From a virus, in IMG/VR virus record IMGVR_UViG_3300018878_000100: a stretch of 64,000 nucleotides of DNA. One strand, 5' to 3'. Below are positions 579 through 60,279 of this stretch, in pieces. The position numbers were made by a program, and so were the translations under genes. Every line of letters starts with the position of its first letter. Position 1 is the first letter of the stretch. The notes under the pieces were generated by a model that saw only the letters and a list, made by a program, of their open reading frames with translations, was not told where the DNA came from and did no database searches.

Positions 579-1748
579 ATGGCTGAAGGTATTATTTTTG
601 GTGGACATTTATTGGATAAAGATACTTTTATTCAAATATTTGAAGAATGGTATAATGAAAAAAATCAAGAATTTTATCACGATTTAGTAATATTAAAAGA
701 TGAAATATCTCAAATGTATACTATGGAATTAAGAGAGAGTCAGTCTCATCCAGGAGTATGGAAAAATGCTATGAGACGTCAGTCATCTTATAGTGCAAAA
801 AAGATATATGAAAGATGGGAATAGATTCAAAAAAAATATTTTGGTAATAATGCTGTTACCTTAATTGCTATTACTAAATTTGGAGAAAAAGAATTGACTT
901 GGTCCTAGAATATAGAAGAAGCAAGTGTAATGACTGAGGGTGGTATTAATGTTACTAAAACTCAATTAAATACGGCAGTTGGTTCTTTGGATAAAGATTT
1001 AGCTGCATATGCGGCCGCTCAAGAGATTTAGAATTTTTTTAGACGACATTATAGTGATATGTGTAATCAACTTTCTGGCTATAAAATGAATAATACAGAT
1101 GCTCAATTATTACATAAAACAATTTCTTCAAAATCTCCTTTGTATTAGTCTAGACATGAATCTTTTACTGGACGTAGTTATGGAGAAATTATTTTTGCTT
1201 CTTAGGGCAATGCCGAAGGTAAATAGTTAGATGCTTTTATGAATCATGTGGCTCAATACAATAAACAATTATTTGGTTTAATGTCTGCTAGTGCTGTTAA
1301 TAGTAATTAGCTTGTAAATTTAAAAATAGATGACCACGGTGGATTTTCAGGGATTTTTAGTTCTCCACAAGTAGTATAGCCTTGGTTATTAGCATCATTA
1401 AACTCAGCTAGTTGGTTGACAGGAGGAGACGTTGTTGTTATTGATGAGTCTGGAGCCGTAATTTATAATATTTAGATTAAATCAACATTAGCAGATTCAG
1501 GTAAAAACTTTGAATTAGCATTAACAAGACTTGAGAGTTTAATTAATAGACTTATTAAAAGAATGGAAAGAATGCATGAAAATCCAAGATTAAAACCTAA
1601 GTCTTTAGCTAATATAATGTATAAGTCTTTAAAAACTACTAGTAGCAATGATGTTGCTAAAAGCGAATCTTTTATGGAGACTGAAGCTTATAATACTGTG
1701 CGTAAAAACTTAAATTTAGCTCCAATCAATATAAAGTTTAATGTATAA
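579..1748 (+). CDS. Hypothetical virion or tail-associated protein of 389 aa, read through 9 in-frame TAG codons
   Basis: An AGGAGG site lies 8 nt upstream of ATG 579. A single frame runs from 579 to TAA 1746-1748 and is interrupted only by TAG (at 822, about 906, 1029, 1146, 1203, 1224, 1308, 1377 and 1473). There is no in-frame TAA or TGA. The ORF-track fragments 579..824 and 1563..1748 are in the same frame. Confidence 0.6.
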
Positions 1749-1751
1749 AAT

Positions 1752-1780
1752 TTGACAAATCAGAAATTTTCTGGTATAAT
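1752..1780 (+). promoter_or_regulatory. Sigma-A/sigma-70 consensus promoter (TTGACA, 17 nt, TATAAT)
   Basis: TTGACA lies at 1752-1757 and TATAAT at 1775-1780 with a 17-nt spacer. An AGGAGG site and ATG 1816 follow. Confidence 0.55.
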
Positions 1781-1815
1781 ATAATTGTAAAATGAGATAA
1801 AGGAGGAGTTTAGCT

Positions 1816-2355
1816 ATGGCTAAAGTACCATTTTCAAAACTTCAAGCTAAAGTAGACGGAGGGGCAACAAGTGTCTTTTATTATAATTTAGCAGGAGAAG
1901 AAGTTTATTATGAAGTAAAACATTATTTACCTTTTAAGGAAAAGCTTGAATTAGTATCAAACATTATTAATAAGTCTATTGATGATAATGGATTTTACAA
2001 TCCAATGAGAGTAAAATTTAATATGGTATTAGAAATTACTTATGCTTATACTAATTTAAGTTTCACTGAAAAAATGAAAGAAGACCCATTTAAATTATAT
2101 GATATTTTAGTAAGCACTGGTATTTTTACAGATATTGTTGATGTTATTCGTGAAAAAGATTGGCAAGAAATTCAAGAAAATGTTTGGTCTACTATTAATA
2201 ATATTTATCAATATAATAATTCTGTAATGGGAATTTTAGATACATTAAAAGCTGATTATGATAATTTAAATTTTGATGCTACTGAAATCCAAAAGAAGAT
2301 TGGGGACCCAGAGAATATGGCTTTATTGCGTGAAGTCCTAACTAAATTGGGCTAA
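1816..2355 (+). CDS. Hypothetical 179-aa protein in the position of a tail assembly chaperone, immediately upstream of the tape measure gene. The call is positional only. It has no TAG.
   Basis: The ORF is intact with a strong AGGAGG site and ends in TAA. No slippery-site or frameshift partner was identified. Confidence 0.5.
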   Translation: MAKVPFSKLQAKVDGGATSVFYYNLAGEEVYYEVKHYLPFKEKLELVSNIINKSIDDNGFYNPMRVKFNMVLEITYAYTNLSFTEKMKEDPFKLYDILVSTGIFTDIVDVIREKDWQEIQENVWSTINNIYQYNNSVMGILDTLKADYDNLNFDATEIQKKIGDPENMALLREVLTKLG

Positions 2356-2402
2356 TTAAATTATTCTTATTATTTAGATTTTTAAATTTTAATAGGAATA
2401 GT

Positions 2403-2441
2403 CGGGGATGAGAATTTGATTATTCTCATCCCCGATTTTTT
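2403..2441 (+). terminator. Rho-independent terminator
   Basis: CGGGGATGAGAAT (2403-2415) pairs with ATTCTCATCCCCG (2422-2434). The sequence ATTTTTT follows. Confidence 0.65.
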
Positions 2442-2487
2442 ATTTTGCAAAATAAAAAATTAGGAGAGAAAGGAGATAAAAATTTGT

Positions 2488-5400
2488 ATGGCAAAAAATC
2501 TTAATGTTAGTTTAGCTTTTACTGCGAATACGAATGAGGCTATTGCCGCAATTAAAAATTTGCAAAAAGAGCTTAATGGATTGGCTACTGGTTCTGCATT
2601 GAAAAATAGTGGAATTTCACAAATTACACCTGAAATTCAAAGAGCTATGACCGCAGCAGGAGAGTTATAGGCTAAACTAGAAGCGGCTACAAATTTAAAA
2701 ACAGGAAAATTAGATTTAGGTCAATTTTCTGATTCCTTAAAAAAAGGCGGAGTTTCTCTTCAGCAATATGCTAATCAATTAAATGCTCTTGGTCCGGCCG
2801 GTCGTCAAGCATTTACGAATTTAGCTTAGTCTGTTTTATAGGCAGAAGCTCCTTTAATTAGATGCAGTCAAAGGGTTAGAGAGCTTGGTACTACATTAGC
2901 AAATACTGCAAGATGGCAGTTATCTTCTAGTATTTTACATGGTTTTATGGGAACCGTATAGTCTGCTTATGGATATGCTCAAGATTTAAATAAATCTTTA
3001 AATGATATTCGCATTGTTACTGGTGCTAGTGTTGCTGAAATGGATGCATTTGCAGCTAAGGCAAATAAGGCAGCGCGGGCATTAAGTACAACAACTAATG
3101 AATATGCTAAAGCTTCTTTAATCTATTTCCAATAGGGTGATACTCAATCTGAAGCTATGCAAAAAGCTGCTGTTACTGCAAAAATGGCAAATGTAACTGG
3201 ACAAAGCGCAGATGTTGTTTCTAATCAATTAACTGCTATTTGGAATAATTTTAACAAAGAAGGCGATGTTGCTTATGAACATTATGCCGATGTATTAACA
3301 AAATTAGGTGCTGCAACTGCGTCTAGCACTGATGAAATTGCTGGTGGATTAGAGAAATTTGCCGGTATTGCAGATACTATTGGTTTGAGTTATGAATATG
3401 CTGCATCTGCTTTGGCAACAATTACTGCAACATCTCGTGAAAGTGAAGAAGTTGTTGGTACAGCATTAAAAACAATCTTTGCACGTATTCAAGGTTTAAA
3501 GCAAGGAGACACCCTTGAAGATGGTACTACTTTAAATAAATACTCTGAAGCTTTGCAAAAAGTCGGTATTAGTATTTTTGACCAAACTGGCGAATTGAAG
3601 AATATGGATAGTATTCTTGAAGAAATGGCCGCAAAATGGGTAACTTTAAATAAAGACCAATAGTTGGCATTGGCTCAAACTGTTGCTGGTGTTCGTCAAT
3701 ATAACCAAATGGTTACTTTGATGGATAATTGGGATTTTATGGAAGAAAATCTTGCAACTGCTGGCGCAGCGGATGGAGAACTTAATAAACAAGCTGAGAT
3801 TTATGCTGAAAGCTGGGAGGCTGCTCGAGACAGAGTAACAGCAGCAGCAGAAAATTTATATACTAAAATTTTAGATGACGATTTTTTCATTGGTTTTTTA
3901 GATGGTTTAAGCCATGTTATTGATGGAGTAGGTAGTTTAGTTGATGCTTTTGGAGGTTTAGGTGGCGTTCTAGCAACTATTGGAGCTATTGCCACAAAAG
4001 TTTTCCATAAAGAAATTGCTTAGGGTTTAAGAAATGCTGCTTATAGTATTAAGCAATTTACTCCAGCGGGTAAAAAAGAACATGAAAAGACTAAAGAAGA
4101 TGCTCTTGAGGGTATTCGTAACTTAAAATCTAATATGCGTGGTCGTGAAGGCGATGCAGAAAATGCTTCTCTTGATAGAGAAATTCGTATGCAAGAATAG
4201 CTACGTGCAGCTGCTGGTCGCGTAACTGAAGAAGAGCTTAAATAGCTTCAAGTTCAAATGGATTTAGTACGAGCAATGGATAAGAGAGCAATTGCTGCTG
4301 GTAAAGCAGCGGATGCAGCAAGGGAAGAAGTTGAAGACGCTCGAGATTTAGCAAAAGCCTATGAGAAAATTGAGGCTAGAGATAAGGCCAAGGAAGATTT
4401 TTAGAAGAAACATTAGGGTGAAGAAAATCAAAAACGAAATGACGCAATATCTCAAGCCTTTGACGATGTAATAGATTATGGAGCAAATCACAGAAAGACA
4501 AAACATCATCGATTTGGTGAGTAGGGAGATTATATTAATTAGCAATATGCTTAGGCTCGGTAGAGGGTAGTAGATTCTGGTGAAACAGTAACAGCTGATG
4601 CTGTTCGAGGAGAATTTTTAGCTGGATTAAGAGAGGCGGCCGACAGTAGAGATGAAATGGCGAAAGCTATTTTTGATAAAGTTAAAGCTGCTGGAGAAGA
4701 AGCTGCTTAGGCATATGGTGAAGCTATGAAGTCTGAGCTAGATGAAGCAATGAGAGATGCTGAAAGATAGGCTAGCGAAAAAATTGAAAATATTGGAAAA
4801 GCAGTGGATAAAGGTGCTATGACGGAAGTCCGTGCCAAAGATTTAAGAGAAACTGCTTCTAAACTTTCAGTAAAAACTAAAGACGATAATGGTAATGAAG
4901 TTTATAAAACTGCCGATACTGGATTAGGTAAAGTATAGGATACATTAAAACAAAAGCTTGCTGCGACAGCTGCTGAAGCTAAAGAATTATAGGCTGCATT
5001 AGCTGCTTTGGGTAAATCTGATAGTGTATTAGATGGTAGAATTGCAGATTTAGAAAATATGACACAAGAATTAAATAGTACTACTGCTAGTGCTGAACGT
5101 CTTGAAGAAATTTTAGGATAGCTATCTAGTGAAGAGGAAGGCGGTATTACTTCAGTTCTTGAAGATTAGGCTCAAATGTTGACAGTGGATGCAGCAGGAA
5201 CGCCTTATGGTGGAGAAACAAGCGCAGATGCAAAAACTCGTGGAGGAGAAGATTATCTTCGTTCTAAGCAAGCTGCTTAGAAACAAATGGATAGCGAAAA
5301 CGCTAATTTAAATGTTGGCGGTAGTGAAGAAGGTTTAAATGAATCTTTTAATAAGAGCGGTTTAACAGATTGGGCCGATTAGATTACTAATACTACTGAT

Positions 5401-8400
5401 TTAATTATGGGACTAGGCTCTGCAATCAGTTCAGTATAGGGAGCTATTGATGTTTTTAATAATCCTGATGCAACAGCTTGGGATAAAATTAGTGCAGTAA
5501 TCAGTGTTGTAATCGGTATTTTACCAGTTGCATCAACTTTAATGACAATGTTTGGTACTACTGCAGCAACAGCAGGTGCAACTGCGAGTGCGGGTATGAC
5601 CGCTGCGTTAGGTTCAATTGGTTGGATTATTTTAGCAGTAACAGCATTGATTGCAATTTTTATTGCTTTAGGTTCTGCGATAGCAGCAAATTCTCCAGAA
5701 GGATAGCTGAAGAGTGCACAAGAAGCCACTGAAAAAACTGCACAAGCGGCACAAAATGCAAAAAGTGCTTATGAAGAATTGTTAGCTACTATCAATAGAT
5801 ATGATAGTGCAAAAGAATCGTTAGAAGGATTAGCTAAGGGTACCGAGGAATATACGGAAGCTCTCATGGAGGCTAATGCTGCGGCAAGAGAATTAATTGA
5901 TACTTATGAATTAACAAGTGATTAGTTCCATGTGGATGAAAATGGTTTAATTCAAATTGATGAAAATGCTCTTTAGACAAAGAAAGATGAACATCGTGAA
6001 AGAGTTGAAAAAACTTCTAGTGCATTAACAGGCGCTTAGAAATATGAGAATGAAAAAGAAGACGATGTTACTATTTCTAATATTCGAAAAGAAGCTAATA
6101 AGGATTCCATGTATTATGGGTCTGATTATTAGAATTATTTAATCTCTGATACTAATATTGAAACTGTATTAGCTGCGGCCAGAAATGCAGAAGGTGGTTC
6201 TGATGCTTATTTCGCTGAAGGTGAAAAAAATATTGCAGCAACAATGGGATGGGACCCAGATGCATTAACAACTTATTAGCAAGATTTTATAAATGCATTA
6301 ATGGAAAATTCCGCGGCCCTATCTGAAGCAAATGCAGCAATTTTAGCAAACGCAGCGGCCAATGAAGCTGCTACAAAAGCATAGTTGGCGCAAAATTTGA
6401 GTGATGAAACTGCATTTTAGGACAGTGAATATCAAGATGAGTTATTAGAAGCTGCATTAAATACTCAAGGGACTGAGGAATCAGAAGCTCAAGATAAGCT
6501 TGACGGAATGACTCAAGACCAAATGTATGATGCTTATGCTGAAATGATGGGCTATACCAATAATGGTATAGGTACTTGGTTAGATGGTAAGCAAGAGTTC
6601 TTGGATGCTGACGGAAATCCAATTGAGTTAACTCCAGAGCAAGTAGAAGCTCAAATGCGTGAAATGTACGCGCAAGAGGGTATGGAAGAAAATGCATTAA
6701 ATCTTGTAGATACTATGAATCAAGTAATGGCACGAGCTGATGAAAATAAAGGTGTTATTAGTACTGCTATTACTGGAGATACAGAAAAATTAACTATTGG
6801 TTAGTAGGGTATGAGTGCAGATGAAGTTGCTGCTATGGTTACTGATGAAGAAGCTCAAGCGATGGGCTTTGAAAGTGCGGCAGCTTTTGGAGAATCATTT
6901 GCTTCTGCTACAGAGAGCTTTGCTGGTGAATGGCAATCTTTAATGGGAAATTATGTTGACTCCGTTTCTGATTAGATGCAAACCATGTTTGATAATGGAG
7001 AGTTAGATAATCTAACTCTTGGACAGTCAGAAAATTTAGCAAATGCTTTTGAAACTGCATATGCAACTAGTGGATAGGCTGGTATGGATGTATTGGCTAA
7101 GATGTTTACTGATGCTGGTGAATATTCTGACGAATTTGCAAATGCTCTTGGAACTATAGACTGGAGCACTGCTACCCCAGAGACTTTACAAGACGCATTG
7201 GATGCCGCGGGTGTTGCTACTCATTATACTGCTGATGAATTAAATAATTTAATTAATGTAATGAACGAAGGAGCTATGGGCTTCGAAAATGCTGCAAATA
7301 AATATAAAACATTATCTGAGATTGTTGATTCATTAAAATCTGGTGATACTATTACAGCTGAGCAATTTAAAGAATTGGGTCCAGGTATGGAAGATTATTT
7401 CATGCGAATGGCTGATGGTACTTATAAATTAATTGGTGATGCAGAAGCTTTCTATGCTGCTGTTAATGAATAGTAGTTGGAAGGTTTTGAAAATACAATT
7501 ACTGCAAAAACTGAAGATAATGCAGAAATTGAAAATGTATTAAATCATGATATTAGCTCTTTGGGTAAGATGGATAGTACTACAATGGGTGGTCATGTTT
7601 ACACTGGAAATGGACAATTTGTTTAGAATACTGATGTAGCTAATGCTCAATTAAATTTCTTAGAGTAGACTGGCTATGACCCCGCTCAAGTTCAACAATG
7701 GCGTGATGATATGTAGGCTGGCACTTTAGATGTTAAAGCATTGACAACTGCTGTGAATGAACAAACAACGTCTCTTGGCGGAGCAGCAGCTGCAGAAGAA
7801 TATTTAACACAATAGCTGGATGCTAATAATACAGAAATTGAACAAAGTAAAGAGGCTATTGCATCTACGGCTACATCTTTAGATGAATTAGATTAGATGT
7901 TGCAAGATGGTAAGATTTCTGTAGAAGCATATGATAAAGCTGCCTAGGGTGCTTTTGAAAAAGAAGTTGAAGCTGAGGGTTTCGACACTGAAGAACTTAA
8001 TAATTATGTTGATGCATTAATTGAATCTGGTAAATTCTTAGAAGAAAATCGACAAGAAGCTCAAAAATTTGCTTTAGCTCAGTATCGGATGGAAAAAGGA
8101 TGCACTGAGTTGGTTGAAAGTTATGAAGATTGGGACAAAGTTTTATCAGATAATGAAGCTAGTTTAAAAGATATTAATAAAGTTATGCCAAAAGTAAATT
8201 CTATGTTACAAGATATGATGGACTTATCTGATGAAGAATTTGCTTTATTACCAGATAATTTTGCTCAAGATAATTGGAATTTAATTCAAGACGTTTATAA
8301 TGAAGTTGATGGAGCTTATGAAGCTTTAAGAGCAAAAATAACAGAAGAAATTGTTATGAAGGTTGTACTTGATGAATCTGCTTAGGGTCAAGTTATGACA

Positions 8401-11400
8401 GAAGTTAATAATTTTTTAGCCAATGTTAATTTGGATGATATTGAAGTTGGAGCAACTTTAGATTCCACTGGATTTGCAGCTGGTTTATAGGGATTATTGG
8501 ATTCTGGCGCAGTAACTGTAGAACAAATGAATGACATTTTATCAGGTATTGGTTATGAACCAATTATTGAATATGAACAAGTAGCAGTTAGTTCTTTTGC
8601 CCGTCAAAGCCAATAGGGTTATATTCAAGTTGCAGGTGTTGATGGAAGCATTGAATATGTGCCAATTACATCTGACATGGATATTAGTGGTGAACAATAT
8701 GTATATGTTCCAAAAATCGGTAGTTCTAAATATAAAGGCGGCGGTGGTGGTGTCGCTGATGCTAAAGCCAATAAAGGCGGTGGCGGAGGAGGCGGTGGCG
8801 GCTCCAAGCCAAAGAAAGCCGACAAAGTAAAGAAAACTGATGTTGTTGACCGATATAAAGAAATTGACGATAAACTTGATGACATTGCAGATAAAATGGA
8901 TGATGCTTCTAAGGCTGCTGACCGTCTATGGGGTCCTGCACGTTTAAAGCAAATGAAAAAAGTTAATGATGCTTTAGAAGAAGAAATTGATGCATTAAAG
9001 AAAAAACGAAAAGAAGCACAAGATAATCTTGATATTGATAAAAAAGCTTTGAAAGATACTATTAGTGCAGAAGCAGGAGTTACAATTACAGACGCAGATT
9101 TTGACGCAGAAGGCAATTTCACTAGATATGATGAAGTTTTAACTGATTTATATAATGAAATTGATGCTGCTATAGAAGCGGCCAATGCTGATGGTAATGC
9201 TGATGAAGATGAACAAGAAAAAATTGATAAAATTCAAGAGCGTATTGATAAAGTAAAAGAAGCAATTGACCAATATGATGAAACTCGTGAATTAATTGAA
9301 GATTTAGACAATGATATTCAAGATAAAATTTACGAATGGCAAGATAACAATTATGAACAATTAAATTATAAACTTGAATATGAAATTGAAATTAATGATT
9401 CTGAACTTGAATTATTAGAATATTATATGGGCAAAGCTGAAGGTAATATTTATAAAACTGCAGAAGCTTTTGGATATTTAGCTGGACAAGCCGATATTTA
9501 TACTGATAATTTAAAGCATCAAGAAGAATATGTTAATGAATTAACTAGGGCTTATTATGCTGGTGAAATTTCTATGGATGCATATAAGGAAGGTTTGCGT
9601 GAAGCTCAAAGTGCAACCATTGAAAACTTATAGGCATTAGAAGAACAAAAGAAAGCTATGCAAGAGTATTATGGTGAAGTAATGGATATGGCTCTTGAAG
9701 AAATTTCTTTGTATACAGATGAAATGGAAGAGTTAAATTCTGTTCTCGACCATTATTCTAATATTCTTGAATTAGTTGGTAAGCAAGAAGATTATGCAAC
9801 CAAGGGTAAAGTTTTACAATCCAAAGCCGCAAATCTTCGCAATGAAATGCAAGTCCAACAAAAACTTTATGAAAAGTCTAATGCCGAAGCTGAAGATTGG
9901 GCTGCTAAAATGGCAACAGCAATTGAAGGTTCTAATGAGTATGAAACTTATAAAAAGAATTGGATTGCGGCCCAAGAGGCAGCTAATGAAGCTCAAGAAA
10001 ATATGTTAAGTAAGACTGAAGAGTGGGCTGAAGCAATGAAGGCAGTTATTGAAAATGAATTAGCTGGATTAGCTAAGACCATGGAAGAGTCTTTAACGGG
10101 CGGAACTTCATTTGATGAGTTATTAACTTCTATGGAGCGCCGCAGTAGTCTACAAGAAGAATATCTAACAACTACAAATCAAATTTATGAAACTAATAAA
10201 TTGATGCGTCAAGCTCAACAAGAAATTGATAAAACTACTAACTCTGTAGCAAAGCGAAAGTTGGCTAATTTCATTAATGAAACAGAATAGATGCAAAATC
10301 AAACTGAGTTAAGTCAATATGAGTTAGATATCCAGTAGGCCAAGTATGATTTACTTTTGGCTGAAATTGCATTAGAGGAAGCTCAAAGTGCTAAATCTAC
10401 TGTTCGCTTACAGCGCGATAGTGAAGGCAATTTTGGTTATGTTTATACTGCGGACCAGTCTGCGGTCGGTGAGGCCGAACAAGAATTGGCAGATAAGCAA
10501 AATGCTCTTTATAATCTTGGATTAGAAGGTGCTAATGATTATAGTCAAAAGTATGCTGAAACCATGCAAGAAGCTCAAGATGCTATTACTGAATTAACAG
10601 AAATGTGGATGAATGGTGAAATTGAGTCTGAAGAAGAATATCAAAGACGCAAGGCTGAAATTCAGGATTATTATTATGAGAAATTAAAGCAATATTCAAG
10701 CTTATATCAAGTAGCATTAACTACTGATAGTAATGTTATCAAAGATGCTTGGAGTACTGACTTTAGTGATATGATGTATAAGACTGAAGATTGGAAAGTC
10801 GCAACTGATGATTACTTTGCCGGAGCTGCTGAAAGCATGAAGACCTGGGCTGAAGTTTGTGGAACCGTTCTTGAGGAATCTGGTCTTGATGACGTAAGTA
10901 AAAAGGTTGAAGAAATCAATACCAAGAGTGAGAATTTGAAAAATACTCTAATTGGTGAAGATGGCGAGAGCGGCGTTGTTGGTGCAATGATGTCTGAAGT
11001 TGAAGCTGCGGGTAAGTTAAGTGAAGCTTATATTGGCATTCAAAATCAAATTGATGAAGTTATTAAGAAGTATGAAGAAATGATGGGTGTAATTAATGAA
11101 GATTATACCAATGAAAATACTCCTGAAGTTACTCCTGCGATTACTCCAGACCCTGAACCCGAGCCAGAAGAACCAGTTCCTGAACCAGAGCCTGAACCTG
11201 AGGAGGCCACTGTTCCTGAATTAAAGGTTGGTTCTACAGTTACCGTTAAGAAGAGCGCAAGCAGATGGGCTACTGGAGAAGGTATTTGGAATCCAGTTAA
11301 GGGCAACAATTTCAAAGTTAAGAAAATTAATGGAGAAAAAGTTCTTATTGGAGACCCTTCAGGTCCTAACTATAGTGCTTCTGGCATTACAGGTTGGATT

Positions 11401-11763
11401 AAGAAAACTGACCTAGAGGGCTTTGCTACTGGTGGCTACACTGGAGACTGGGAAGGTTCTTATGGTAAGTTAGCAATGTTACACCAAAAAGAATTGGTGC
11501 TAAATGCAAATGATACTGAAAACTTCTTGCAAGCAATGGATATTCTTGATAAGATTGTTTCTGCTATTGATTTGTATAGTATGAATTCTCAGCTTGGTGG
11601 AGCTTTATCTAGTCCGTCTCTTGGAAATATGGGCGGTGGAGATGTCCTTGAACAACAAGTACATATTGAAGCTAGTTTCCCAGGAGTACAAGATAGAAAC
11701 GAAATCGAAGAAGCATTTAATACTCTTATCAATAGAGCATCTCAATATGCTAATCGTAAATAA
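2488..11763 (+). CDS. Tail tape measure protein of the TP901 family, about 3091 aa, read through about 51 in-frame TAG codons
   Basis: An AGGAGA site precedes ATG 2488. Frame 1 is continuous to TAA 11761-11763 and is interrupted only by TAG. Track ORFs 2488.., 3157.., 3664.., 6508.., 7084.., 8089.., 8659.., 9658.. and 10357.. are all in this frame. The TP901-type core is recognisable at about 3100-3500 (…VTAKMANVTGQSADVVSNQLTAIWNNF…LTKLGAATASSTDEIAGGLEKFAGIADTIGLSYEYAASALATITATSRESEEVVGTALKTIFARIQGL). A hydrophobic, Ala/Gly-rich segment lies at about 5400-5700. Long coiled-coil regions are present. A Gly-rich linker lies at 8740-8810 and a PEPEPE linker at 11150-11215. An SH3-like segment follows (VGSTVTVKKSASRWATGEGIWNPVKGNNFKVKKINGEKVLIGD…GWIKKTDLEG). 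The protein ends with the motif typical of Gram-positive phage tape measure proteins (GYTGDWEGSYGKLAMLHQKELVLNANDTENFL). Confidence 0.9.
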
Positions 11764-19540: not shown

Positions 19541-19909
19541 ATGACAAATTTAGAAATTTTAAATTTTAATGAATTATATAAACAAAATTTTCAAGAATTT
19601 GATGAATTATTACCAGCAAAAATTTTGTTTTATATTTATAAAAATTTATCATTAATTGAAATATCATTACATCATATTGAAAATACTAGAAATAGTATTA
19701 TTCGTAAATATGGTTTAATTGATGAATCAAAAGATACTATTCAAATTCCTCCAGAATTAGTAAATGAAGCTAATAAGGAATTAGAAGAAGTTTTAAAAAT
19801 GGAATAGGAAATTAATTTTTTTTTAATTCCTCTTTCATGGTTTGATAATATCAATCTTAATCCAAAGCATATGAAATTATTATGGATTATGATTGATGAA
19901 AATAAATAA
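19541..19909 (+). CDS. Small 122-aa protein, paralog 1 of a tandem pair, with one TAG readthrough at 19805-19807
   Basis: A GGAGG site precedes ATG 19541 and the frame ends at TAA 19907-19909. It aligns with the downstream paralog over its full length, including the C-terminal ...HMKLLWIMIDENK against ...QMEALMFMID. Confidence 0.55.
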
Positions 19910-40776: not shown

Positions 40777-40799
40777 TAAAGAAAGGATGATATTTAGAA

Positions 40800-42731: not shown

Positions 42732-42752
42732 TAACTTGAAAGGAGAGGTAAA

Positions 42753-43340: not shown

Positions 43341-43348
43341 TAGTTTTA

Positions 43349-43458: not shown

Positions 43459-44343
43459 GTGGCTGATTTAGCTTTACAGTTTAAGTAGGGTCAATATGCT
43501 TCAGGTAAGTTTGATAATTCAAATGCAAATCATTTGAAACACGAAGCTGGTACCCTTTATCTTGCAACTAATGAAGATTATTCTGCTTATTTATTATTTG
43601 ATGATGGCGTTAACTTTTTGAATATTATTCCATAGATGTTAGGTTATCACCACGGTGGTACTGGTGTTGATTTATCAAAGAATACTCCCGCAAATGCAGT
43701 TTTAATTCAGAATACTACTTTAAATGGTATTGCTAGTGTTGCAAGTGCAAAAGGTGCTTTTTATTCTACTGGAACAAATTTAACACCTCAATTTGGAACA
43801 TTGCCTGTCAATGTTGGTGGTACCGGTATTACTACTGCAACAGCTGGTGGTATTTTATATGGTAATGGAACTAATGCTTTCAAAGTAACGGCAAAAGGCG
43901 CAAAATCTGCTATCTTAGTCGGTGGTAATGGAACTCCCGCATTTGCGGCTCCCGCAGTTTCTTGGATTGCAGGTACAACTGCAGGTCCCACATTTAGATT
44001 TGCATTAAATGGAACAAATTTTGATGCAGTTATTCCTTCTGCTTCAACTACTGCTTCTGGTATTATTACTAATGATATTCAAACCATTGGAGGCCATAAA
44101 ACTTTCAATGATGGTCTTACTATTAATGGTACTGCAAAATTTAATGGTGGATTTTAGATTGTTGGTGGTATTGATGCATATTATAATTCTTCTAGTGACC
44201 AATCTGTCGGTTCATTAGAAGTTATTGGTGGTATTACCGCCACAATGAATATGCGTGTTGACGGAGGAGCTATTCAATTTAAAAAAGCTGGTAAAATTCA
44301 ATATGATGATACAAAAGAATGTTTTAATTTTGTATTCGCATAA
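43459..44343 (+). CDS. Tail fibre protein, copy 1, about 294 aa, read through 3 TAG codons
   Basis: An AAAGGAGG site lies 7 nt upstream of GTG 43459. Frame 1 runs through track ORF 43636.. to TAA 44341-44343. Fibre motifs are present (LPVNVGGTGITTATAGG; ASGIITNDIQTIGGHKTF). It is paralogous to the 47164 gene. Confidence 0.6.
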
Positions 44344-49431: not shown

Positions 49432-51858
49432 ATGAGTTTATTAATATGGTTACCATTACATGGTAATTTAGAAAACTATGGTTCTTCTCCAATAAAATTT
49501 AGTTTAAATACTACTGGTGGCGGTGTTGCAGCTGCCACCAGTGGTGGAAAAACAGATATGCGCTGTTATCAACGAACAGCTATTAATACAGTTTCTCATA
49601 TTACTAGTGATTCCACAATTGATTTAAATAAAGATTTTACTATGGCATGTTGGTGTTATCCAACCACTCCTGGTAATGCTACTTCTGCAAATGGAATTCT
49701 AACGAATCATAATCATTCTCATAATAGTGATAAAGGTAGTGGTTCAGGAATTACTTTAAAATATAGTGGTAATACAACTTGTTATATGAGTTGTAATACT
49801 TCTTCTTCTACTGGAAGAACATATTATTCATATTATGGAACTACAAACATCTATGGAGCTTGGCATCACTTATGTTTAACCTATAAGAAATCTACTAAAA
49901 CTTATCGTTTATTTGTAGATGGTATTTGCGAAAAGGAATTTACTTGCGAGAATGTATCTGCTGCAAATAAATTTAATATATTTGATTGGTCTGTCGGGCA
50001 TTCAAATAATGGGTCATATAGACCCGCCTGTAAAATTAATGATGTGCGAGTATATGATGAATGTTTATCCAAAAGAGAAGTGAAATTATTAAGTCAAGGT
50101 TTAGTTTTACATTATAAATTAGATGGCGGAAATGCGAATAATTTATTAACTAATTCTTATACGATTGGAAATAGACAAACCTCTTTTGATAAGGTCTATG
50201 GATTTCCTGTCTGTAGTGCAGATAATAGTGCAGGCACTGGATATAAAGATTTTGCTTCTTGGGGAGGACACTCTGTTTCTATAAATGAAGTATATACAGC
50301 AAGTTTCTTTGCTAAATCATCTACTTCAAGTACTTTAACTATGTACTTTTATAATAATACATCTGGCGTGGTTCAAGTTTCTAATATTAAATCATCTGAA
50401 GGACATAATAAAAGCGGCAGTGATGGCAATTGTCCTCTATCATTAACTCCTCAATGGAAAAAATATACAGTAACTTGGACTTTTGCAGCAAGCGGAACAA
50501 CTACAAATAAAACCTTGCTATTTAGACTTGCGGCAGGTGGTAAATGTGATATAGCTTTACCAAAATTAGAAAAAGGTTCGATTGCTACCCCTTATTGCCC
50601 AGCATTAAGTGAAACATTTTTTAATGCTGCTGATGATTGTAGTGGATATGGTCGTAATGGCACAACAGTTGGTAATATTACTTTTAGCTCTGATACTCCA
50701 CGCTATGCGGCAAGCTCTGTGTTTGATGGTTCAACCACAGGCATTAATTTACCAATTAAAGATTTAATGAAAGCAGTATTGAGTGATAAGTGTACTATTA
50801 ATTTTTGGGTAAAAGAATCAAATACATCAAGTAGAAGTATTTACTTTGGCGGTTATAGTGGTAGTAATTTTAATATTGAACAAAATGTAACATCTTTCCG
50901 AGTATATTGGAATGGTAGTCCAGATTTATCAGTAGGTACAATTACTAATAACGAATGGGCTATGTGGACTGTTACAACAGATATTGCTACTGGTATTAAA
51001 ATATATAAAAATGCAACTTTAGTAAAAACTCATACGGGTGCTCTTACTAATATTGCTTCAAGTTTTACAAGAGATTTTAATATTGGTAAAGATAGTAGAA
51101 CTGATGATACAATGATGGAAGGTAAAATGTCAGATTTTAGAATTTATGCTTCTGTATTGTCTGCTACTGATATTAAAGACTTATATCAAACTGCAGCGTC
51201 AATAACTAAAGAGGGTTCTGTATAGGCTTATGAATTTATTGAAGAGCCTGATAGTTTTGATATTAAAATGACTAAATAGGGTATGTTAAAAGCTGCTGAC
51301 ATTTCTGAAATTGGATATATTGGCGGTATGAAAGTTAAAGTGCTATCCGACAATAGTGCTTGGGCACGTATTCATTGGCTTGACGTGACTACGGATAAAA
51401 CTTGGTTTACTGCTAGCGAAGTTGCCTTTTGCAATTAGGCTAATCGTTTTAGTCGAATGGGTTTAGTAGACCATTTTAAAGTAGATGGTAAATATGAGTT
51501 TATGTTAACTTATCCGTCTTTGTCAAATTCTTTATATAATAGATGGACACAAACAAGCTCTCCAAATGCAAGTACTGTAACTGGTTTTACTGCTATTACA
51601 ACAGCATGGAATAATCATAATGCAGGCATTCGTAAACATGGTTCAGCTTGCGTCTATAACTGTGACACTGGCTCAACTTGGTTTGCTCCTATTGGACAGA
51701 AATCTGCTTGGGATAGTACTAAATTTATTCCTGCCGCAGATGGCACTTCACAAACTGAAACAGAATTGTGGGTAAGAATTGATACATTACCCAACTTAAC
51801 AAAAACTAGTATGCTTGATAAAGAATATTTACAAGCATTTAAGATATATGAAATTTAA
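49432..51858 (+). CDS. Receptor-binding-like protein, copy 2, about 808 aa with LamG-like domains, read through 3 TAG codons
   Basis: A GGAGG site precedes the ATG. Frame 1 runs through track ORFs 49432.. and 51457.. to TAA. The N-terminus (MSLLIWLPLHGNLENYG against MSLQVWLPLNNHINNQG) and the C-terminal domain are paralogous to the 44356 gene. A LamG motif is present (…MSDFRIYASVLSATDIKDLY). Confidence 0.6.
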
Positions 51859-51877: not shown

Positions 51878-54800
51878 ATGGCACAAGTAAATGATTTACT
51901 CGTCCTTGGAAAAGCTAATTTTTTAAATGAGATAACTTCTTCTCAATTATTAAGAGCCTTTGGCGGTATTGCAGTAGATAGTTCAACTGAAGAATCTACA
52001 TCTTTACCTTATTTTTTAGGTATTAAAGCTTTTGCTGATGGTGGCAATGTTGTTTGGTCTAGTCCCACGAATACAGCTAATGTAATTAGACTTAATGCTT
52101 CTGGAACTTGGCCTATTAGTATTAGTGGTCTTGCCGCAAAAGCAACCGCTGATGCAAATGGAAGTACTATCACTTCTACTTATGCGAAGTTAAAATCTTA
52201 TAATGATATGATTCATTCTACAAATGAATATACATTTGCATCTCCGGCTTATTCTGGAGCCATTTGGATTAACTATCGAACTGCAAGTGGAGCAACTGAT
52301 GGTAATATTACTACTTATAATTTTGGTAATGGTAAAGGCGGAACTGCAGGAGTTACTCTTGTGGCAACAACTTTTAATGGCAATGCTACCAGCGCTAATT
52401 ATGCAACTTCTGCTGGTAATGCAAACACTTTAGATAATATTGATTCTACTGGATTCTTAAGATATTACAATAGTAATACTGCAATATCATCTACTGAAGT
52501 TGTTAATACTCCATCTTATGTACATACGGTTAGTACAACAGGTGGAAATATTACAACATCTGTGAAACCCTCTGGCATGAACAATGCATGGGGACTTATT
52601 CACTTACATACTCATACTGGTAATTACGCTACCTAGTTAGGTTTCGGTGGCACAACTGGAAATTTATATATGCGCAATGCTTATAATTCTGCAACTTTTG
52701 GTAGTTGGAAAACTATTCTTGATTCTGGAAACTGGACAAGCATTGTCGATGGAAGATATTTAAAATTATCAGGCGGAACAATGACTGGCTTAGTGTCATA
52801 TAAAACCACAAATTATACTTCTACTCCAATGGCAATATATGATGACGGAACAAATTATGGACATAGCTTAGTTATTGGTGCTGGCGGCACTACTTATATT
52901 GGAGCTGGTGAGGCTGCTAGTACTTTATATTCAACAAAACTAAAAGTTACTTCTACTGAGGATTTAATTCTCGGTGCAGACAGTAATATTAGATTTCATA
53001 CGAATGCAGATAATGCAACCACCACGAATGGAGTAACTCTTAATACCTCCAATTATTTTTATCCATAGACAACTAACACTGGTAGTGTTGGTACTTCTGG
53101 TAATAAATGGGGTTCCATGTATGCCACAACCTTTTATGGAGCTTTAAGTGGTAATGCTACAACAGCTAGTGCTTTAACTCCGATTACTACAAATGATTTA
53201 GCTTCTAGTAGTACGACTAAAAGACGCATTTGGTTTTGTTATGATAATAATACAACAGGTCGACCTGCTTATGATGATAGATTTACAATTCAAACTTCTA
53301 CTGGAACATTATTTGCTCCAATTTTTAGTGGTAATTTAAGTGGTAATGCAACAACAGCAACTACTGCCAATGCCTTAGCAAGTACTGGTTATGGTAATGG
53401 TAATTTTACTTGGTTTCAAACTTCTGGAGAGTTCGCTGGCAATAGCGGATGGGCATCTTATTTAGTTTCTAATCATGGAGATGGCTCTAGTTATTATCAT
53501 TAGATTATTGCTATACCATTTTGGGATCCTCCAAAATATCGCCGCATGGAGGGTAATACTAGTACCGTTAAAGGCTGGTATGATTTTATTACTGATGAAA
53601 ATTATACTACCAAGTTAGATGCTCGATATTACACCGAAGCAGAAGCCGATAGCCGTTTTGTAAATGTAACTGGCGATTCCATGAGTGGAACGTTAAGTTG
53701 GAGCGGAAATATTTCAAGTTTAAATTTCCGCACTGGACATAGTGATTATGATGGTGTAATTAGTTATCAAACAAGTGGTAATGAAGCTATGTTATTTACT
53801 ACTAAAAACGTAGTTACGAGTTTTATGTTTGTTAATGGTGAAGACACTATTACTAATATGGCTGCTGATAGATGGACTAAAATAACTCCCGGTTTACAAA
53901 TTAAAAATAATTGTGTTGCGATTGGTAAATTAATTGCTAATGGTAGTACTCCCAGTTATAAACTAGAAGTAGCTGGAATGACATATTCTTCAGGTCGTTA
54001 CTTATCTGAAACAGTACCTTCTTCTTGGATTGATGGTTAGCGTTATAATAACGGTGCTTATAATGTAAATACTTATTCTAATGATGGCAGCTATAATCCT
54101 TGGATACGTGCAACTAATAGTCATGCTAATGTTGCTAAGTGGTTTAGTTTTGGTACATTAGGCAAACAATTTTATTGGATTGGTTCTACTACGAGTCGTA
54201 CTGAAAATAGTTATGATAAAGGTATGTCATTTAATGTTGAATCTGGTTTATTATATGCTCCAATTGTTGGTGGCGATAGAATTTATACTGGCTATGATGC
54301 TGGAGTAACTGGCTCTGTATCTTGTTCTAATTGGTTCCGTTCAAGTGGCGCAACAGGTTGGTATAATGCTTCTTATGGTAATCATTTATACCCAAATACT
54401 GTAACAGGTTATGGCGGTTTTATGATGTATGGTAATGTTAGAGGTGGATATGAAGGCATTATTCTTGGTAATAGTACTAGTTATATGACATTGATGTCAA
54501 GTGACCCTCATCAAGGATTGTATAATGAAGCAAAAGGACGTTGGATTATTTATTATAATAAAACTAATAATCAAACTTCTGTAAATGGCGCTTAGACTTC
54601 AGCAACAGCTTTTCCATTTACTATTTTTGGTGCAACTTATATTGATGGTCGTTTGGTTGTAAAAGGCAATGGTTCTTCTTATAATGAAGGTATTCGTGTT
54701 TTACCTGCATCAAATGGATGGTCTAACTTATTCTTCTCTGGAACGAATACTGTAGAAGGCACTCATGATGGCGGTTGGTTAATCGGTCGTAGGGGAACAG

Positions 54801-55405
54801 CTGGAAGTACTTATGGTGCAGTTGGAGATTTCTGTATTGAAAATAATAATAGTGTTGGAAGTAATTTAACGTTAACTAAAGCTGGTATTTTAGTTAATAT
54901 TGGACCAATCTTTGGCTATAGATATAAACAAACTAGTAATGGCGCTGCTTTTATGTGGGATAAACCTGGTAGTAATTACACTGGTATGGGCGCTAATGAT
55001 TCTAGTGACACTATTCAATTTAGAGCTTGCGATATCGCTGGTAATTGGGTAGATTATAAACAACATTGGAATTTCTATGGTGATTTATTTGCTTATGGCG
55101 CAAGATTTGCAAATAGAGGTACTTCAACATCTACTTCTGCTTATAGTGATTCAGCAGTTGAAATTCGTGAATACGGTTTTGGCGGCGCTCAATCTGATAC
55201 TTGGGGAGTTGCTCCTCGTTTAAGTTTCCATTGGAGTGGACGTGTTGCAGCGCAAATAGGTCTTGCTTCTAACGGTAAATTATATATCAATAATAATACT
55301 CAAGGAAGTACTACATTCTTACAAATTGTCGGTATGACTGGCTATGGTACTGCAGCCCCATCTGGTGCAGCTCCTGCTGGTTCAGTTTATTTTAAATATA
55401 GTTAA
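51878..55405 (+). CDS. Large tail fibre or tail spike protein of about 1175 aa, read through 6 TAG codons
   Basis: An AGAAAGGAG site precedes the ATG. Frame 2 is continuous through track ORFs 51878.., 52670.., 53117.., 53546.., 54224.. and 54653.. to TAA 55403-55405. Fibre hallmarks are present (YLKLSGGTMTGLVS; VTGDSMSGTLSWSG). The product is Gly, Asn and Thr rich. Confidence 0.65.
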
Positions 55406-55463: not shown

Positions 55464-55686
55464 GACTTTTTTCTTCCTATTTCCCGCCAATAGAGGTCCT
55501 CAAAAAGAATTGTCCCAACACAAAAATAATCTTTATTCCCTCCTAAAATGGCATTCTCGAGGTCCTAGTGGGAACTCGTCTCGGTCCCCGGTTGGTCAAT
55601 TTAGATTAATTTTTCGGTCCTAATTTTCACTATACTATGAGGGGATGGATAATGAAAATTTTTTGTATGGAAAGGAGACCTTACAT
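55464..55686 (+). promoter_or_regulatory. Non-coding region at a module boundary carrying repeated GGTCC(T/C) motifs; a putative regulatory region
   Basis: GGTCCT/GGTCCC occurs at about 55494, 55561, 55584 and 55616. TCTCG(A)GGTCC half-sites recur at 55556 and 55578. The track ORF 55429..55623 is low-complexity and probably spurious. Confidence 0.3.
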
Positions 55687-56127
55687 ATGTATTCCAACTA
55701 TAATTATTATCCACAGCAACCTACACAGACTCCACAAGTCACCCAATAGCAATCAATGTACTAGATGCCCTATTTACGACAGGCGCCGCCGCAAACAGGA
55801 CTGAAAGGCCGTTTGGTTAGTTCATTGGAAGAGGCCCGTGCAACCTCTATTGACTTCGATGGTTCTGTATTCTATTTTCCAGATTTGGCGAACAAACGAA
55901 TCTACACAAAACAAATAAATATGGATGGTACCGCTACATTATGTATGTATGAATTAAGGGAATTACCCATTGAAAAAGAAGAGAGCGCTGTATTGCCATC
56001 CGTTGAGAAATTTGTAACGAGAGAAGAGTTTGAGCGGGTCTTGGAGTATATTAAATCACTTCAAAAGCCAACCGAGCCGGCCGCACCCGCCCCGCAGAAA
56101 CAGAAAGTAGAAATTTTATCATTCTAA
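55687..56127 (+). CDS. Hypothetical 146-aa protein with a Q/P/Y-rich N-terminus, read through 2 TAG codons
   Basis: An AAAGGAGA site precedes ATG 55687. Frame 1 runs through track ORF 55765.. to TAA 56125-56127. TAG lies at about 55747 and 55762. Confidence 0.5.
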
Positions 56128-58532: not shown

Positions 58533-58579
58533 AAAAAGGGTCGTATATGATTTATTCATATACGACCCTTTATTTTTTT
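58529..58579. terminator. Bidirectional rho-independent terminator between the convergent + and - modules
   Basis: An A7 run precedes GGGTCGTATATGA pairing with ATATACGACCC across a TTTATTC loop. The sequence TTTATTTTTTT follows. Confidence 0.7.
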
Positions 58580-59177
58580 ATGTGCAAATAGCCCACCCAG
58601 TAGATGTACCATCTTTGTTAATATATGGAATAGCAACTTTCCATCCATTAGCAGTTCCATCAACATTGACATATGGTATTGCACTCTTCCATCCATTGGC
58701 AGTTCCATCAATATTAATGCGAACTAATCCTCCACCATTAATCACTGTACCTCCATAAGTAGAGCTATCTCCTCGGTTTCTGATAATAACAATAGTAGGA
58801 TTTGATTTACGAACAAAATGAAATCTAAAAGTTACTGTTGACCCAGCGGCTACATATACTCCTCCAAATGTAAAAGTTTTTTGTTCCGTATTATAATAGT
58901 TTCCTCCGCTAGTTTTATTGCTTACAGTAATTGTATTGGACGTATGCGATGTTCCGTTAGAATCAGTAACAGTTACATAAACATCATATGCATATCCATA
59001 TCCAGTAACAGTATCTCCCTAATTGTATGTTCCATTACCTGAAGCAAGACCTATTCTGCATGCAGTTATTAGTTGAGGTGTAGAACCAGTATTTTTATAT
59101 TTGAGTAAATTTCTACTATAAGTAGCATCTATGCCCTAATAAGAAAAACTCCAATCACTATGAGTACTCCATCCCAT
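58578..59177 (-). CDS. Hypothetical 199-aa protein with C-terminal tandem repeats of about 15 aa, read through 2 TAG codons
   Basis: The minus-strand ATG at 59177 has an AGGAGAAAAG site. The frame is exactly 600 nt and ends at TAA (the complement of 58578-58580). CTA on the + strand at about 59136 and 59021 gives TAG in frame. The repeats are NIDGTANGWKSAIPYV, NVDGTANGWKVAIPYI and NKDGTSTGWAI. Confidence 0.5.
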
Positions 59178-59199
59178 TATCTTTTCTCCTTTATCTCTT

Positions 59200-59250
59200 T
59201 TTTAATAAAAAATTTGGTGAAGTAAAAATATAAAATTACTTCACCAAATT
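59200..59250 (-). terminator. Rho-independent terminator on the minus strand
   Basis: AATTTGGTGAAGTAA pairs with TTACTTCACCAAATT. On the minus strand a T-rich tract follows. Confidence 0.5.
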
Positions 59251-59255
59251 ATGGT

Positions 59256-59726
59256 TTAGACAGGAACCTCATCGTCAGTCTTTAAAGGTAAAGCAATTGC
59301 CTTATTATAATAAGTTTCAGCTTGACCATTTCCACCTAAGCCTTTATATAATTTATAGAATTCCATTAATTGTTCCATCTGGGATTCAGTAATGTATTCT
59401 TGGCGTAAAAATCCTTTGCACAATTGGATTAAACGGAAACGGTAAGAAGCAACAATTAAGTTCATATGAGATTTCTCTAAGTTCTCATTGTCGCGGCAAT
59501 ACTTTCTTAAATCTTCTAATTCTTGATAAATTGGTTCTAATTCAACTTCAATGTGAGTACCAATTCTTTCATCAAGCTTTTGTTCTGCAATAATACGAGC
59601 ATTTTCTTCGGCTTGGAGTTTTTCTTTCTTTAATTTATCACCATGCCATTTTGCCCAACCCATTACAATAGCACTAATTAGACCGAACAAAATTTCTGTT
59701 CCCCACTCTGCTAAAAGAGCTTCCAT
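59256..59726 (-). CDS. Hypothetical 156-aa protein with an N-terminal transmembrane helix and a coiled-coil
   Basis: The ORF is intact with a GGGGGAAAAC site upstream on the minus strand. Confidence 0.5.
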   Translation of the reverse strand: MEALLAEWGTEILFGLISAIVMGWAKWHGDKLKKEKLQAEENARIIAEQKLDERIGTHIEVELEPIYQELEDLRKYCRDNENLEKSHMNLIVASYRFRLIQLCKGFLRQEYITESQMEQLMEFYKLYKGLGGNGQAETYYNKAIALPLKTDDEVPV

Positions 59727-59793
59727 AATAAAAGTTTTCCCCCTTTCAACTTCTCTATTGGATAATAAAAGAAGTGAAAGAGGGATTATCTAG

Positions 59794-60279
59794 TTAAGAC
59801 CAATCGAATACTTCGACTTTATTATTTACATAGTGAGCACCAATACAAATAGCATCACACTCATCTTGAGTAGGTTTTACACCATAAGTTTTTTCAACCC
59901 AAGCCTATGCGGCTTTCTTCTGGGCTGGACGGTCTTTACCCTTAATACCAAGAGTAGATTTCCAAACGGTTGAAAGAACTGCGGTTCGAGGCATCTTTAA
60001 TGTTACAAATAATTCATATAAAACACCAAAGACTTCTGCTAATGCTTTAAAAGTTTGAACATTGTTTGCAACATTGCCTTGAAGCTAAATATCTTCAAAA
60101 ACAACTTCATCAATATCATATTCATTAATGAGTTGATTTACTTTACTCCGAATAAAGTGAAGTCTATCTCCAACATCAGAATGGTCAGCAGTAAACTTAC
60201 CATATTTTAGAAGCTTACCATCTTCAAATATGGCCCAGCCGCTTGTTCGGCTTGCCTAGTCTAATGCTAAAAGACGCAT
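59794..60279 (-). CDS. ruvC: RuvC-like Holliday junction resolvase of about 161 aa, read through 3 TAG codons
   Basis: The minus-strand translation is MRLLALD(Q)ASRTSGWAIFEDGKLLKYGKF…VVFEDI(Q)LQGNVANN…AA(Q)AWVEKTYG…DECDAICIGAHY…*. The fold motif and catalytic acidic residues are in place. The three CTA on the + strand are in-frame TAG. The stop is TAA. The start overlaps the dUTPase stop in TAATG. Confidence 0.8.

Follow-up and report, generated by a model that had tools for sequence, protein, structure and literature searches.

Reading frames and genes of the window

The DNA described here is a stretch of 64,000 nt from the IMG/VR virus record IMGVR_UViG_3300018878_000100; we call it the window, and coordinates given without a contig refer to it. 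It comprises the tail, fibre and lysis-proximal genes of a phage together with the start of the nucleotide-metabolism module, and many of the genes are interrupted in frame by TAG, and by TAG alone. This observation is confirmed here. Based on sequence comparisons, we put at about 90% the probability that TAG is translated as glutamine (genetic code 15) by this phage, a siphovirus of the SPbeta/Enterococcus EF1 type with a genome of at least 181 kb.

If TAA and TGA alone are treated as stops in a frame scan, the fragmentary open reading frames (ORFs) of the standard code merge into long ones. Open frames of this kind lie at 507-1748 (9 TAG), 2386-11763 (9378 nt, 51 TAG), 11882-19531 (17 TAG), 20312-23317, 23277-25949 and 26282-27484 (5 TAG in each), 44344-46773 (8 TAG), 47158-49416 (4 TAG), 49429-51858 (3 TAG), 51878-55405 (5 TAG) and, on the minus strand, 59794-60282 (3 TAG). 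Dropping TGA as a stop instead leaves the ORF picture nearly unaltered, and dropping TAA merely creates many more spurious ORFs on the two strands. After curation of the starts, 17 genes comprising 13,394 codons contain 126 in-frame TAG, no TAA and no TGA. Their frame +1 has 264 TAG, 422 TAA and 139 TGA, and their frame +2 has 291 TAG, 825 TAA and 903 TGA. The longest frame free of TAA and TGA runs to 3125 codons, compared with a mean of 173 and a maximum of 277 in shuffled sequences (n=100).

A first-pass annotation of this DNA, made from the sequence alone, had estimated about 129 TAG codons in 18 to 20 genes, slightly more than we count, and had placed the GC content at about 33%, which was measured here as 34.9%. 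Its statement that neither a frameshift nor an interrupting TAA or TGA accompanies the TAG codons holds throughout. As it had said, TAA or TGA closes every one of the 33 gene models, with no suspicious overlaps; the number ending in TGA is six rather than five, and the remaining 27 end in TAA. Starts are mostly preceded by strong AGGAGG-type Shine-Dalgarno sites. The window is 100% identical to independently assembled contigs from the Joint Genome Institute (JGI) and the European Nucleotide Archive (ENA), and its sequence is thus no assembly artefact. As predicted, standard-code gene calling fragments the genome: the JGI calls are broken up, and the ENA calls, which read through TAG, give intact products of 3091, 2547, 1175, 808 and 161 aa.

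The TAG-bearing genes begin on the plus strand with 579..1748, located between the tail tube gene and a YomO-like gene. It encodes a 389-aa protein of unknown function without a PHROG match, is a single 389-aa gene in ENA, and uses TAG for 41% of its Gln-type codons (9 TAG). The tape measure gene (2488..11763, plus strand) extends over 9276 nt from its first ATG to a TAA and encodes 3091 aa with 50 TAG, 122 CAA and 9 CAG codons; ENA holds the same gene. The length given by the first-pass annotation is therefore right, and its figure of about 51 TAG codons belongs to the longer, 9378-nt frame. There follow, on the same strand, genes for a distal-tail or baseplate-associated protein of 2547 aa with a C-terminal SH3_3 domain (11888..19531; 17 TAG, the number noted earlier), a 122-aa protein (19541..19909; 1 TAG), a 987-aa tail/baseplate protein ending in TGA (20354..23317; 5 TAG, with homologs carrying 11-21 TAG in the four relatives described below), an 885-aa tail protein (23292..25949; 5 TAG) that matches phrog_32343 and also the "tail protein" family phrog_1887, a 395-aa protein (26297..27484; 5 TAG) and a 505-aa protein (29046..30563; 3 TAG).

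Further along the plus strand, the candidate receptor-binding genes between 43459 and 55405 alternate in type. A fibre-like gene with a GTG start (43459..44343; 3 TAG) is followed by a gene (44356..46773; 8 TAG) whose 805-aa product has Laminin_G_3 and CBM_4_9 domains and is a candidate for receptor binding. Next come a second fibre-like gene that starts with GTG, here after AAGGAG (47164..49416; 4 TAG), a gene for an 808-aa Laminin_G_3 protein (49432..51858; 3 TAG) and a fibre-like gene of 1175 aa (51878..55405; 5 TAG), which is one gene in ENA and split by JGI. The two Laminin_G proteins are distant paralogs (24% identity, E 4e-38). The last TAG-bearing gene on this strand encodes a 160-aa protein (55645..56127; 2 TAG). 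On the minus strand, TAG occurs in genes for a 199-aa protein (58578..59177; 2 TAG), a RuvC-like Holliday-junction resolvase of 161 aa (59794..60279; 3 TAG; Pfam RuvC at 22.9 bits against a cut-off of 22.2) and a 121-aa protein (61317..61682; 1 TAG).

TAG-free genes are interspersed among these. On the plus strand they include a YomO-like gene (1816..2355; 179 aa, weak match to Pfam PF27287 and a match to phrog_30570), a second 122-aa ORF (19924-20292) directly after the first, and a gene for a 486-aa protein matching phrog_35541 (27571..29031). A block of four genes, encoding proteins of 573, 2683, 643 and 195 aa, spans 30581..43340, also on the plus strand. The 2683-aa protein (32436-40487), in the middle of the tail-fibre region, has a C-terminal BspA-type leucine-rich repeat as its sole Pfam match and was possibly acquired horizontally. 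On the minus strand, TAG is absent from the dUTPase gene (60279..60818), which served as the anchor for retrieving surrounding contigs, and from the genes for the NrdG activase and the C-terminal part of NrdD, the anaerobic ribonucleotide reductase (62122..63998; Pfam NRDD, Radical_SAM and Fer4_12), the latter gene running out of the window. A search of the window's proteins against PHROGs yielded solely matches annotated as "unknown function" or as generic tail families.

The residue inserted at TAG

Protein alignments are continuous across the TAG codons, and we found no homolog alignment that ends at one. The TP901-type tape-measure core, PF10145, matches residues 193-401 of the tape measure protein without a break and spans two TAGs, so that the core is in register, as the first-pass annotation had stated. 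The RuvC-like protein aligns with Escherichia coli RuvC (1hjr) and with its EF1 counterpart from residue 1-3 to about residue 150, with all three TAGs in register; a full-length resolvase therefore needs readthrough of TAG. The residues of E. coli RuvC, a distant homolog, at the first two TAG columns are P and F. EF1, a cultured Enterococcus phage that uses the standard code, has Q at all three RuvC columns (GLDQATVV, FEDIQMQ and NAQAKV). The earlier reading of the first of these as LALD-Q-ASRTSGW thus has a direct counterpart in GLDQATVVTGY of EF1. Two of three alignable TAG columns in the tape-measure core are also Q in EF1, and over the whole window the count is five of seven.

Homologs of the 2547-aa protein were used to fetch four relatives (contigs L105-L108) at 69, 56, 46 and 34% identity. 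All four are recoded, with 14-80 TAG per large gene, and over 25,321 aligned columns their in-frame stops comprise 295 TAG, 0 TAA and 0 TGA. At the columns where the window has TAG, the relatives have CAA in 33 cases, TAG in 26 and CAG in 5, followed by scattered codons; the corresponding residues are Q 38, K 13, T 12, E 10, S 5 and W 2. In the reverse direction, TAG of the relatives faces a Q of the window 119 times, which is 13% of all Q columns, and for any other residue the share is at most 2.1% of its columns. Of the 191 homologs found for the 2547-aa protein, 120 were listed, and 90 of these have Q at TAG column 667, some of the Q in ENA and Logan entries being translated TAG. By these alignments, TAG interchanges in relatives with CAA, CAG and TAG itself.

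The substitution profile at TAG columns fits glutamine best, with a log-likelihood of -263, and lysine second, at -338. An independent gene set, the genes of the replication module compared with IMG/VR relatives, again favours glutamine (-1983 vs -2741). The first-pass annotation had proposed glutamine by analogy with recoded gut phages; the CAA and CAG codons of recoded relatives and the Q residues of EF1 now argue for the same assignment. Every check suggested by that annotation and feasible here spoke for its interpretation.

Suppressor tRNAs and the wider genome

The contigs assigned to this phage cover the window-equivalent interval from -45.4 to +135.7 kb, which gives the minimum genome size of 181 kb. 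The window is 100% identical to contigs L002 and L001; L002 is 100% identical to L009 over 8.1 kb and 99.94% identical over 3.1 kb (2 mismatches) to L007, which is part of the contig that bears the tRNA genes. ARAGORN and Rfam searches detected no tRNA within the window, even at Rfam E values up to 5, and none in about 66 kb to its right or 8 kb to its left. A tRNA array is located in the last 7 kb of IMG/VR contig IMGVR_UViG_3300024268_000053 (locus L118), at the far early end of the genome. At its head, ARAGORN places two tandem tRNA(CUA) genes, L118 1154-1228 and 1229-1303, corresponding to a window-equivalent position of about 134.4 kb, some 70 kb past the right end, on the strand that is minus in the window. 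Behind them, in this order, come genes for Leu(UAA), Gly(UCC), Lys(CUU), Met(CAU) and Cys(GCA), making seven tRNAs seen in total. The expectation that a tRNA with a CUA anticodon would be encoded elsewhere in the genome was thus borne out twice over.

Both tRNA(CUA) genes score well above the 29-bit gathering score of the Rfam tRNA model (48.7 and 50.1 bits), encode their CCA end, and have an unpaired 1-72 position (U.U and U.C) and G73. The anticodon CUA is one base away from the Gln anticodon CUG. A weak 1-72 pair and G73 are identity elements of tRNA-Gln in E. coli. In the arrays of this phage family, tRNA-Gln has A1-U72 or U1-A72 together with G73, a combination commonly shared only by the far rarer tRNA-Trp. 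Most of about 80 related IMG/VR loci that were scanned carry a tRNA(CUA) in a syntenic array.

A phage-encoded RF2 (release factor 2), which the first-pass annotation had also suggested, was not found: a motif scan revealed no ORF with both GGQ and SPF motifs, and no release factor or aminoacyl-tRNA synthetase family appeared in Pfam searches of 20 larger ORFs of the early and replication regions or in precomputed Pfam matches. Among the proteins scanned in about 144 kb, we saw no pyl-type gene and no aminoacyl-tRNA synthetase.

The arrays of relatives include some unusual RNA genes. In several, the 75-nt tRNA(CUA) is replaced by one of about 90 nt that has G73 and a long variable arm (L128 4612-4702, L148 6905-6995, L165 6309-6398 and L197 7280-7368); its 1-72 position is a Gln-like U1-A72 in L128 and L165 and an A.C mismatch in L148 and L197. 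One relative has a tRNA with the anticodon UUA (L154 1109-1181), which would suppress TAA, and L183-L186 and L192 have a tRNA with an 8-nt anticodon loop, labelled "taaa" by ARAGORN (UAAA; for example, L184 4435-4508). These two types may be signs that a second stop codon is decoded or that frameshifts are suppressed. Genes for transfer-messenger RNA (tmRNA) lie inside the arrays of some relatives (L138 1380-1679, L148 6309-6657, L194 6970-7279 and L197 5588-5887), and none was seen in the array of this phage. A partial match to OLE RNA (RF01071) inside the array, at L118 3209-3296 (53.4 bits vs 50, model positions 437-594 of 616), may be spurious or a fragment.

To the left of the window, precomputed Pfam matches on ENA calls give the order YonD_N, YonB (capsid), YomW, YomV (YomV_2nd), YomU_Tube and YomO, and then the PhageMin_Tail tape measure. 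Virion proteins match EF1 and SPbeta-like phages by tblastn, and on these homologies the virion module is of the SPbeta/EF1 siphovirus type. To the right lie genes for guanylate kinase, PolIII alpha, PIF1, DnaB, ThyA, LigA, GyrA and GyrB, a 777-aa lysin, NAD-metabolism genes and Sir2, and then for a vault-shoulder protein, DUF2828, GmrSD/HNH and an EcoRI-like methylase. The lysin gene (L070 13742-16072) is TAG-free, encodes Peptidase_M15, phage tail lysozyme, Amidase_2 and SH3 domains, and adjoins gyrB among genes of the early/middle strand, away from the virion genes. Early-region proteins encoded at L112 14914-17427, L112 19692-20462, L109 13501-14304 and L118 5004-7411 include an 838-aa major-vault-protein shoulder/repeat protein, a Sir2-family protein, an NAD synthase, an EcoRI-like adenine methylase and a GmrSD/HNH nuclease.

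The wider family comprises at least 176 IMG/VR contigs, and the sequences of this phage come from animal-gut metagenomes of ruminant type. The nearest GenBank phage by capsid identity is Phass-1 (45.5%), followed by EF1-type Enterococcus phages (about 40%) and SPbeta-like phages (about 26%). A megablast search with window positions 27000-45000 gave no match among GenBank phages. A tail-protein segment is 32% identical to Phass-1 over 23% of the query. A scan of IMG/VR contigs with a tail-protein segment produced no match; the virion half of this phage is absent from those contigs. A 96%-identical capsid gene is present in a yak-colon metagenome-assembled genome (MAG) labelled Treponema. Close relatives (L198-L202) occur in MAGs labelled Treponema, Acutalibacteraceae, Eubacteriales, Prevotella and Tenericutes, one of them on a 176-kb contig that is maybe a whole phage genome. 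A host scan of GTDB found phage contigs in taxonomically inconsistent MAGs only, and no integration junction. These placements are most likely a binning artefact and no evidence of the host. A Bacillota host with the standard code is suggested by the Shine-Dalgarno sites and by the closest relatives in culture.

Uneven use of TAG and its interpretation

The first-pass annotation had described TAG as reassigned across the virion module. This is imprecise: the capsid gene, its neighbours, the tail tube gene and the block 30581-43340 all lack TAG, and TAG occurs outside the virion module in the genes for RuvC and guanylate kinase (4 TAG) and in some genes of the replication region, among them a 341-codon frame (9 TAG). 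TAG accounts for 17% of Gln-type codons in the window overall. The share is 28-41% in the gene for the tape measure protein and in a few others, and 0-5% in most bins of 10 kb across the early and replication region. The early region is nearly TAG-free whatever the gene size. Its GC content is 42-47%, and that of most late genes in this genome is 30-37%; the long antisense ORFs in the early region of contig 3300024268_000053 result from the high GC. TAG use is heterogeneous among genes (chi-square P = 3.6e-6), and at the pooled rate the 2683-aa gene would lack TAG altogether with a probability of 5e-6.

Codon choice differs correspondingly. The capsid-region and tail-tube genes lie just left of the window (L006 1468-4221 and 7625-8680). 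The capsid gene, its upstream neighbour and the tail tube gene are TAG-free, have a GC fraction of 0.42-0.43 and encode Gln nearly always by CAG (11-12 CAG vs 1-2 CAA); the gene directly downstream of the capsid gene is likewise TAG-free (GC 0.41, 5 CAG, 2 CAA). Within the block 30581-43340, CAG makes up 46 of 115 Gln codons, compared with about 7% in the TAG-bearing genes, from which CAG is almost absent. TAG use therefore tracks gene type rather than module. Genes rich in TAG have hardly any CAG, and on this evidence TAG was probably derived from CAG by a synonymous C-to-T change under AT pressure. The pattern also suggests selection against TAG in the proteins made in the greatest amounts, capsid and tail tube.

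Several points weigh against code 15 translation in this phage or limit its support. The statement that TAG never terminates a gene is partly circular because the frames were delimited by TAA and TGA. The two tRNA(CUA) genes are not within the window itself but on a near-identical contig of another record; over their whole length, the two are about 70% similar to several typed tRNAs, with Gln not singled out, and their acceptor features also occur in tRNA-Trp. The release-factor search was partial, consisting of the motif scan and Pfam on larger ORFs. Of about 37 kb on the left (-45 to -8 kb), the reading covered the capsid-adjoining part only, and this in relatives.

Fragmentation by standard-code callers such as that of JGI is what would be expected if the interrupted frames were pseudogenes of a decaying or defective prophage that yield truncated products only. 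We regard the chance of this as negligible. A single stop triplet occurs in frame, 126 times against 0 and 0 for the others and without frameshifts, and its positions are often conserved or exchanged with CAA or CAG in relatives at 34-93% identity. The same pattern persists down to 34% protein identity in a family of at least 176 IMG/VR contigs, and the phage has its own tRNA(CUA). On the strength of the stop counts, the continuous alignments and the pattern shared by relatives, the earlier conclusion that this is recoding and not pseudogenization stands. It is quite unlikely that TAG is a sense codon for a residue other than glutamine, such as Trp, Lys, Glu, Ser, Leu or pyrrolysine. ARAGORN labels the tRNAs "tRNA-Pyl", a label based on the anticodon only, and the absence of pyl genes and of an aminoacyl-tRNA synthetase in the proteins scanned speaks against pyrrolysine. 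The A/U first pair with G73 is found in tRNA-Trp of the family as well, and the long-arm tRNA(CUA) of some relatives resembles the Ser/Leu type. However, TAG in the relatives with the long-arm tRNA faces Q in 20 of 40 columns, the commonest residue, and Ser in none (small counts, from early genes only), which gives no support to serine in them. The residues of relatives at TAG columns (38 Q vs 13 K, 12 T, 10 E, 5 S and 2 W), the likelihoods in two independent gene sets and the five of seven Q in EF1 all favour glutamine.

A host that itself reads TAG as sense, and whose code the phage merely matches, is highly improbable. No bacterial lineage is known to read TAG as Gln. In favour of this explanation is the binning of related contigs into MAGs of very different phyla, but the phage carries its own tRNA(CUA), and the avoidance of TAG in early genes and in the most highly expressed virion genes would be needless in such a host. 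Furthermore, 17 of 33 genes are recoded here, compared with about 90% in code-matched phages (Borges et al., bioRxiv 10.1101/2021.08.26.457843). A different question is that of purpose. The uneven distribution of TAG might be a by-product, with no timing of late genes, if, after fixation of a suppressor tRNA, the change from CAG to TAG became neutral under AT pressure and TAG was purged only from highly expressed genes, in which suppression has a cost. We consider this a serious contender, if somewhat short of even odds; it addresses purpose and not mechanism, and is not exclusive with a timer. It is consistent with the near absence of CAG from TAG-bearing genes (9 CAG and 50 TAG in the tape measure gene), with the CAG-rich, higher-GC composition of TAG-free genes, and with the presence of TAG-free genes in the middle of the late module (30581-43340) and of TAG in a few non-late genes. 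The early region, by contrast, is almost TAG-free irrespective of gene size, as a timer would predict (Borges et al., 10.1101/2021.08.26.457843). A more speculative proposal, which we think unlikely, is that the suppressors provide tunable, deliberately inefficient decoding that sets the stoichiometry of low-copy tail to high-copy head and tube proteins, and that some relatives decode a second stop codon or insert another residue. The odd tRNAs of relatives (long-arm CUA, UUA and 8-nt loop), together with the TAG-free capsid and tube genes, would fit a TAG decoding in this clade that varies beyond plain code 15.

Returning to translation of TAG as glutamine, a possible course of infection can be outlined. 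Early genes, which are poor in TAG, would be translated by the standard-code machinery of the host during transcription of the tRNA(CUA) genes. Charging of tRNA(CUA) with Gln would fall to a host enzyme, either glutaminyl-tRNA synthetase or a non-discriminating glutamyl-tRNA synthetase followed by GatCAB; with its unpaired 1-72 position and G73, the acceptor end has the features of tRNA-Gln. Once charged, the tRNA would outcompete release factor 1 at TAG, giving full-length products of the TAG-bearing middle and late genes. TAG would be held out of the capsid and tail tube genes, whose products are the most abundant and which use CAG.

Gut phages using code 15 were reportedly described by Ivanova et al. 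in 2014 and by Yutin et al. in 2021. Phages that read TAG as Gln are known from bioinformatic work, which assigns code 15 to crAss-like and Lak phages and to the Garnet, Amethyst, Topaz, Sapphire and Agate clades, detects a suppressor tRNA in roughly 40% of the genomes with recoded TAG and reports recoding of 26-71% of genes in phages of standard-code hosts (Borges et al., 10.1101/2021.08.26.457843). The arrangement seen here is the one that these authors propose: early genes follow the host code, and middle and late genes with TAG become readable afterwards through the suppressor tRNA of the phage (10.1101/2021.08.26.457843). Metaproteomic validation of TAG as Gln in gut phages is reported by Peters et al. 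(2022, PMC9523058). Like known code 15 gut phages, the phage described here concentrates TAG in structural genes, has a TAG-poor early region and a phage tRNA(CUA), comes from the animal gut and has about half of its genes recoded (17/33). It differs in its SPbeta/EF1 virion module with a 3091-aa tape measure protein, in the absence of TAG from the capsid and tail-tube genes, and in the lack of an RF2 in the ORFs scanned.

The closest described case is Phass-1 (OQ749652), of the proposed genus Phassvirus, which reads TAG as Gln in 28% of its ORFs, has tRNA-Sup(CTA) genes and is considered a relative of Enterococcus phage EF1 (Babkin et al. 2023, PMC10607447). The NCBI taxonomy holds a "Caudoviricetes code 15 clade" that includes Phass-1. 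The two phages share a tape measure protein of similar size (about 3150 aa in Phass-1), NrdD/NrdG, dUTPase and the overall layout. However, Phass-1 is 136 kb in size with 36 tRNAs, two suppressors beside nrdD and TAG in its dUTPase gene, whereas the present phage has at least 181 kb, 7 tRNAs seen, suppressors about 70 kb from nrdD and a TAG-free dUTPase gene. Members of Phassvirus share 80-86% nucleotide identity (Babkin et al., PMC10607447). Membership in this genus was considered and rejected in view of the missing megablast match for 27000-45000, the capsid identity of 45.5% and the differing set and placement of tRNAs. Homologous virion proteins, the Yon/Yom families, RuvC and dUTPase are shared with EF1, EF5, VRE9 and H1 and with SPbeta-like phages of Bacillus and Staphylococcus. 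These phages use the standard code. The long frames of EF1 have 0-2 TAG by frame scan, and EF1 has CAA or CAG for Gln where the present phage has TAG.

In conclusion, the region and at least 176 related IMG/VR contigs need to be translated with table 15, since otherwise their tape measure, baseplate, fibre and RuvC genes are shattered. Our results do not alter what is known of how phages recode stop codons; code 15 phages are well documented, including by proteomics. They add to these phages a large animal-gut lineage of SPbeta/EF1-type siphoviruses and provide a clean example in which the suppressor tRNAs are situated at the early end and TAG is enriched in low-copy tail proteins and avoided in the capsid and tail tube genes, which use CAG. 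This avoidance bears on whether recoding serves as a timer or a throttle or reflects mutational drift.

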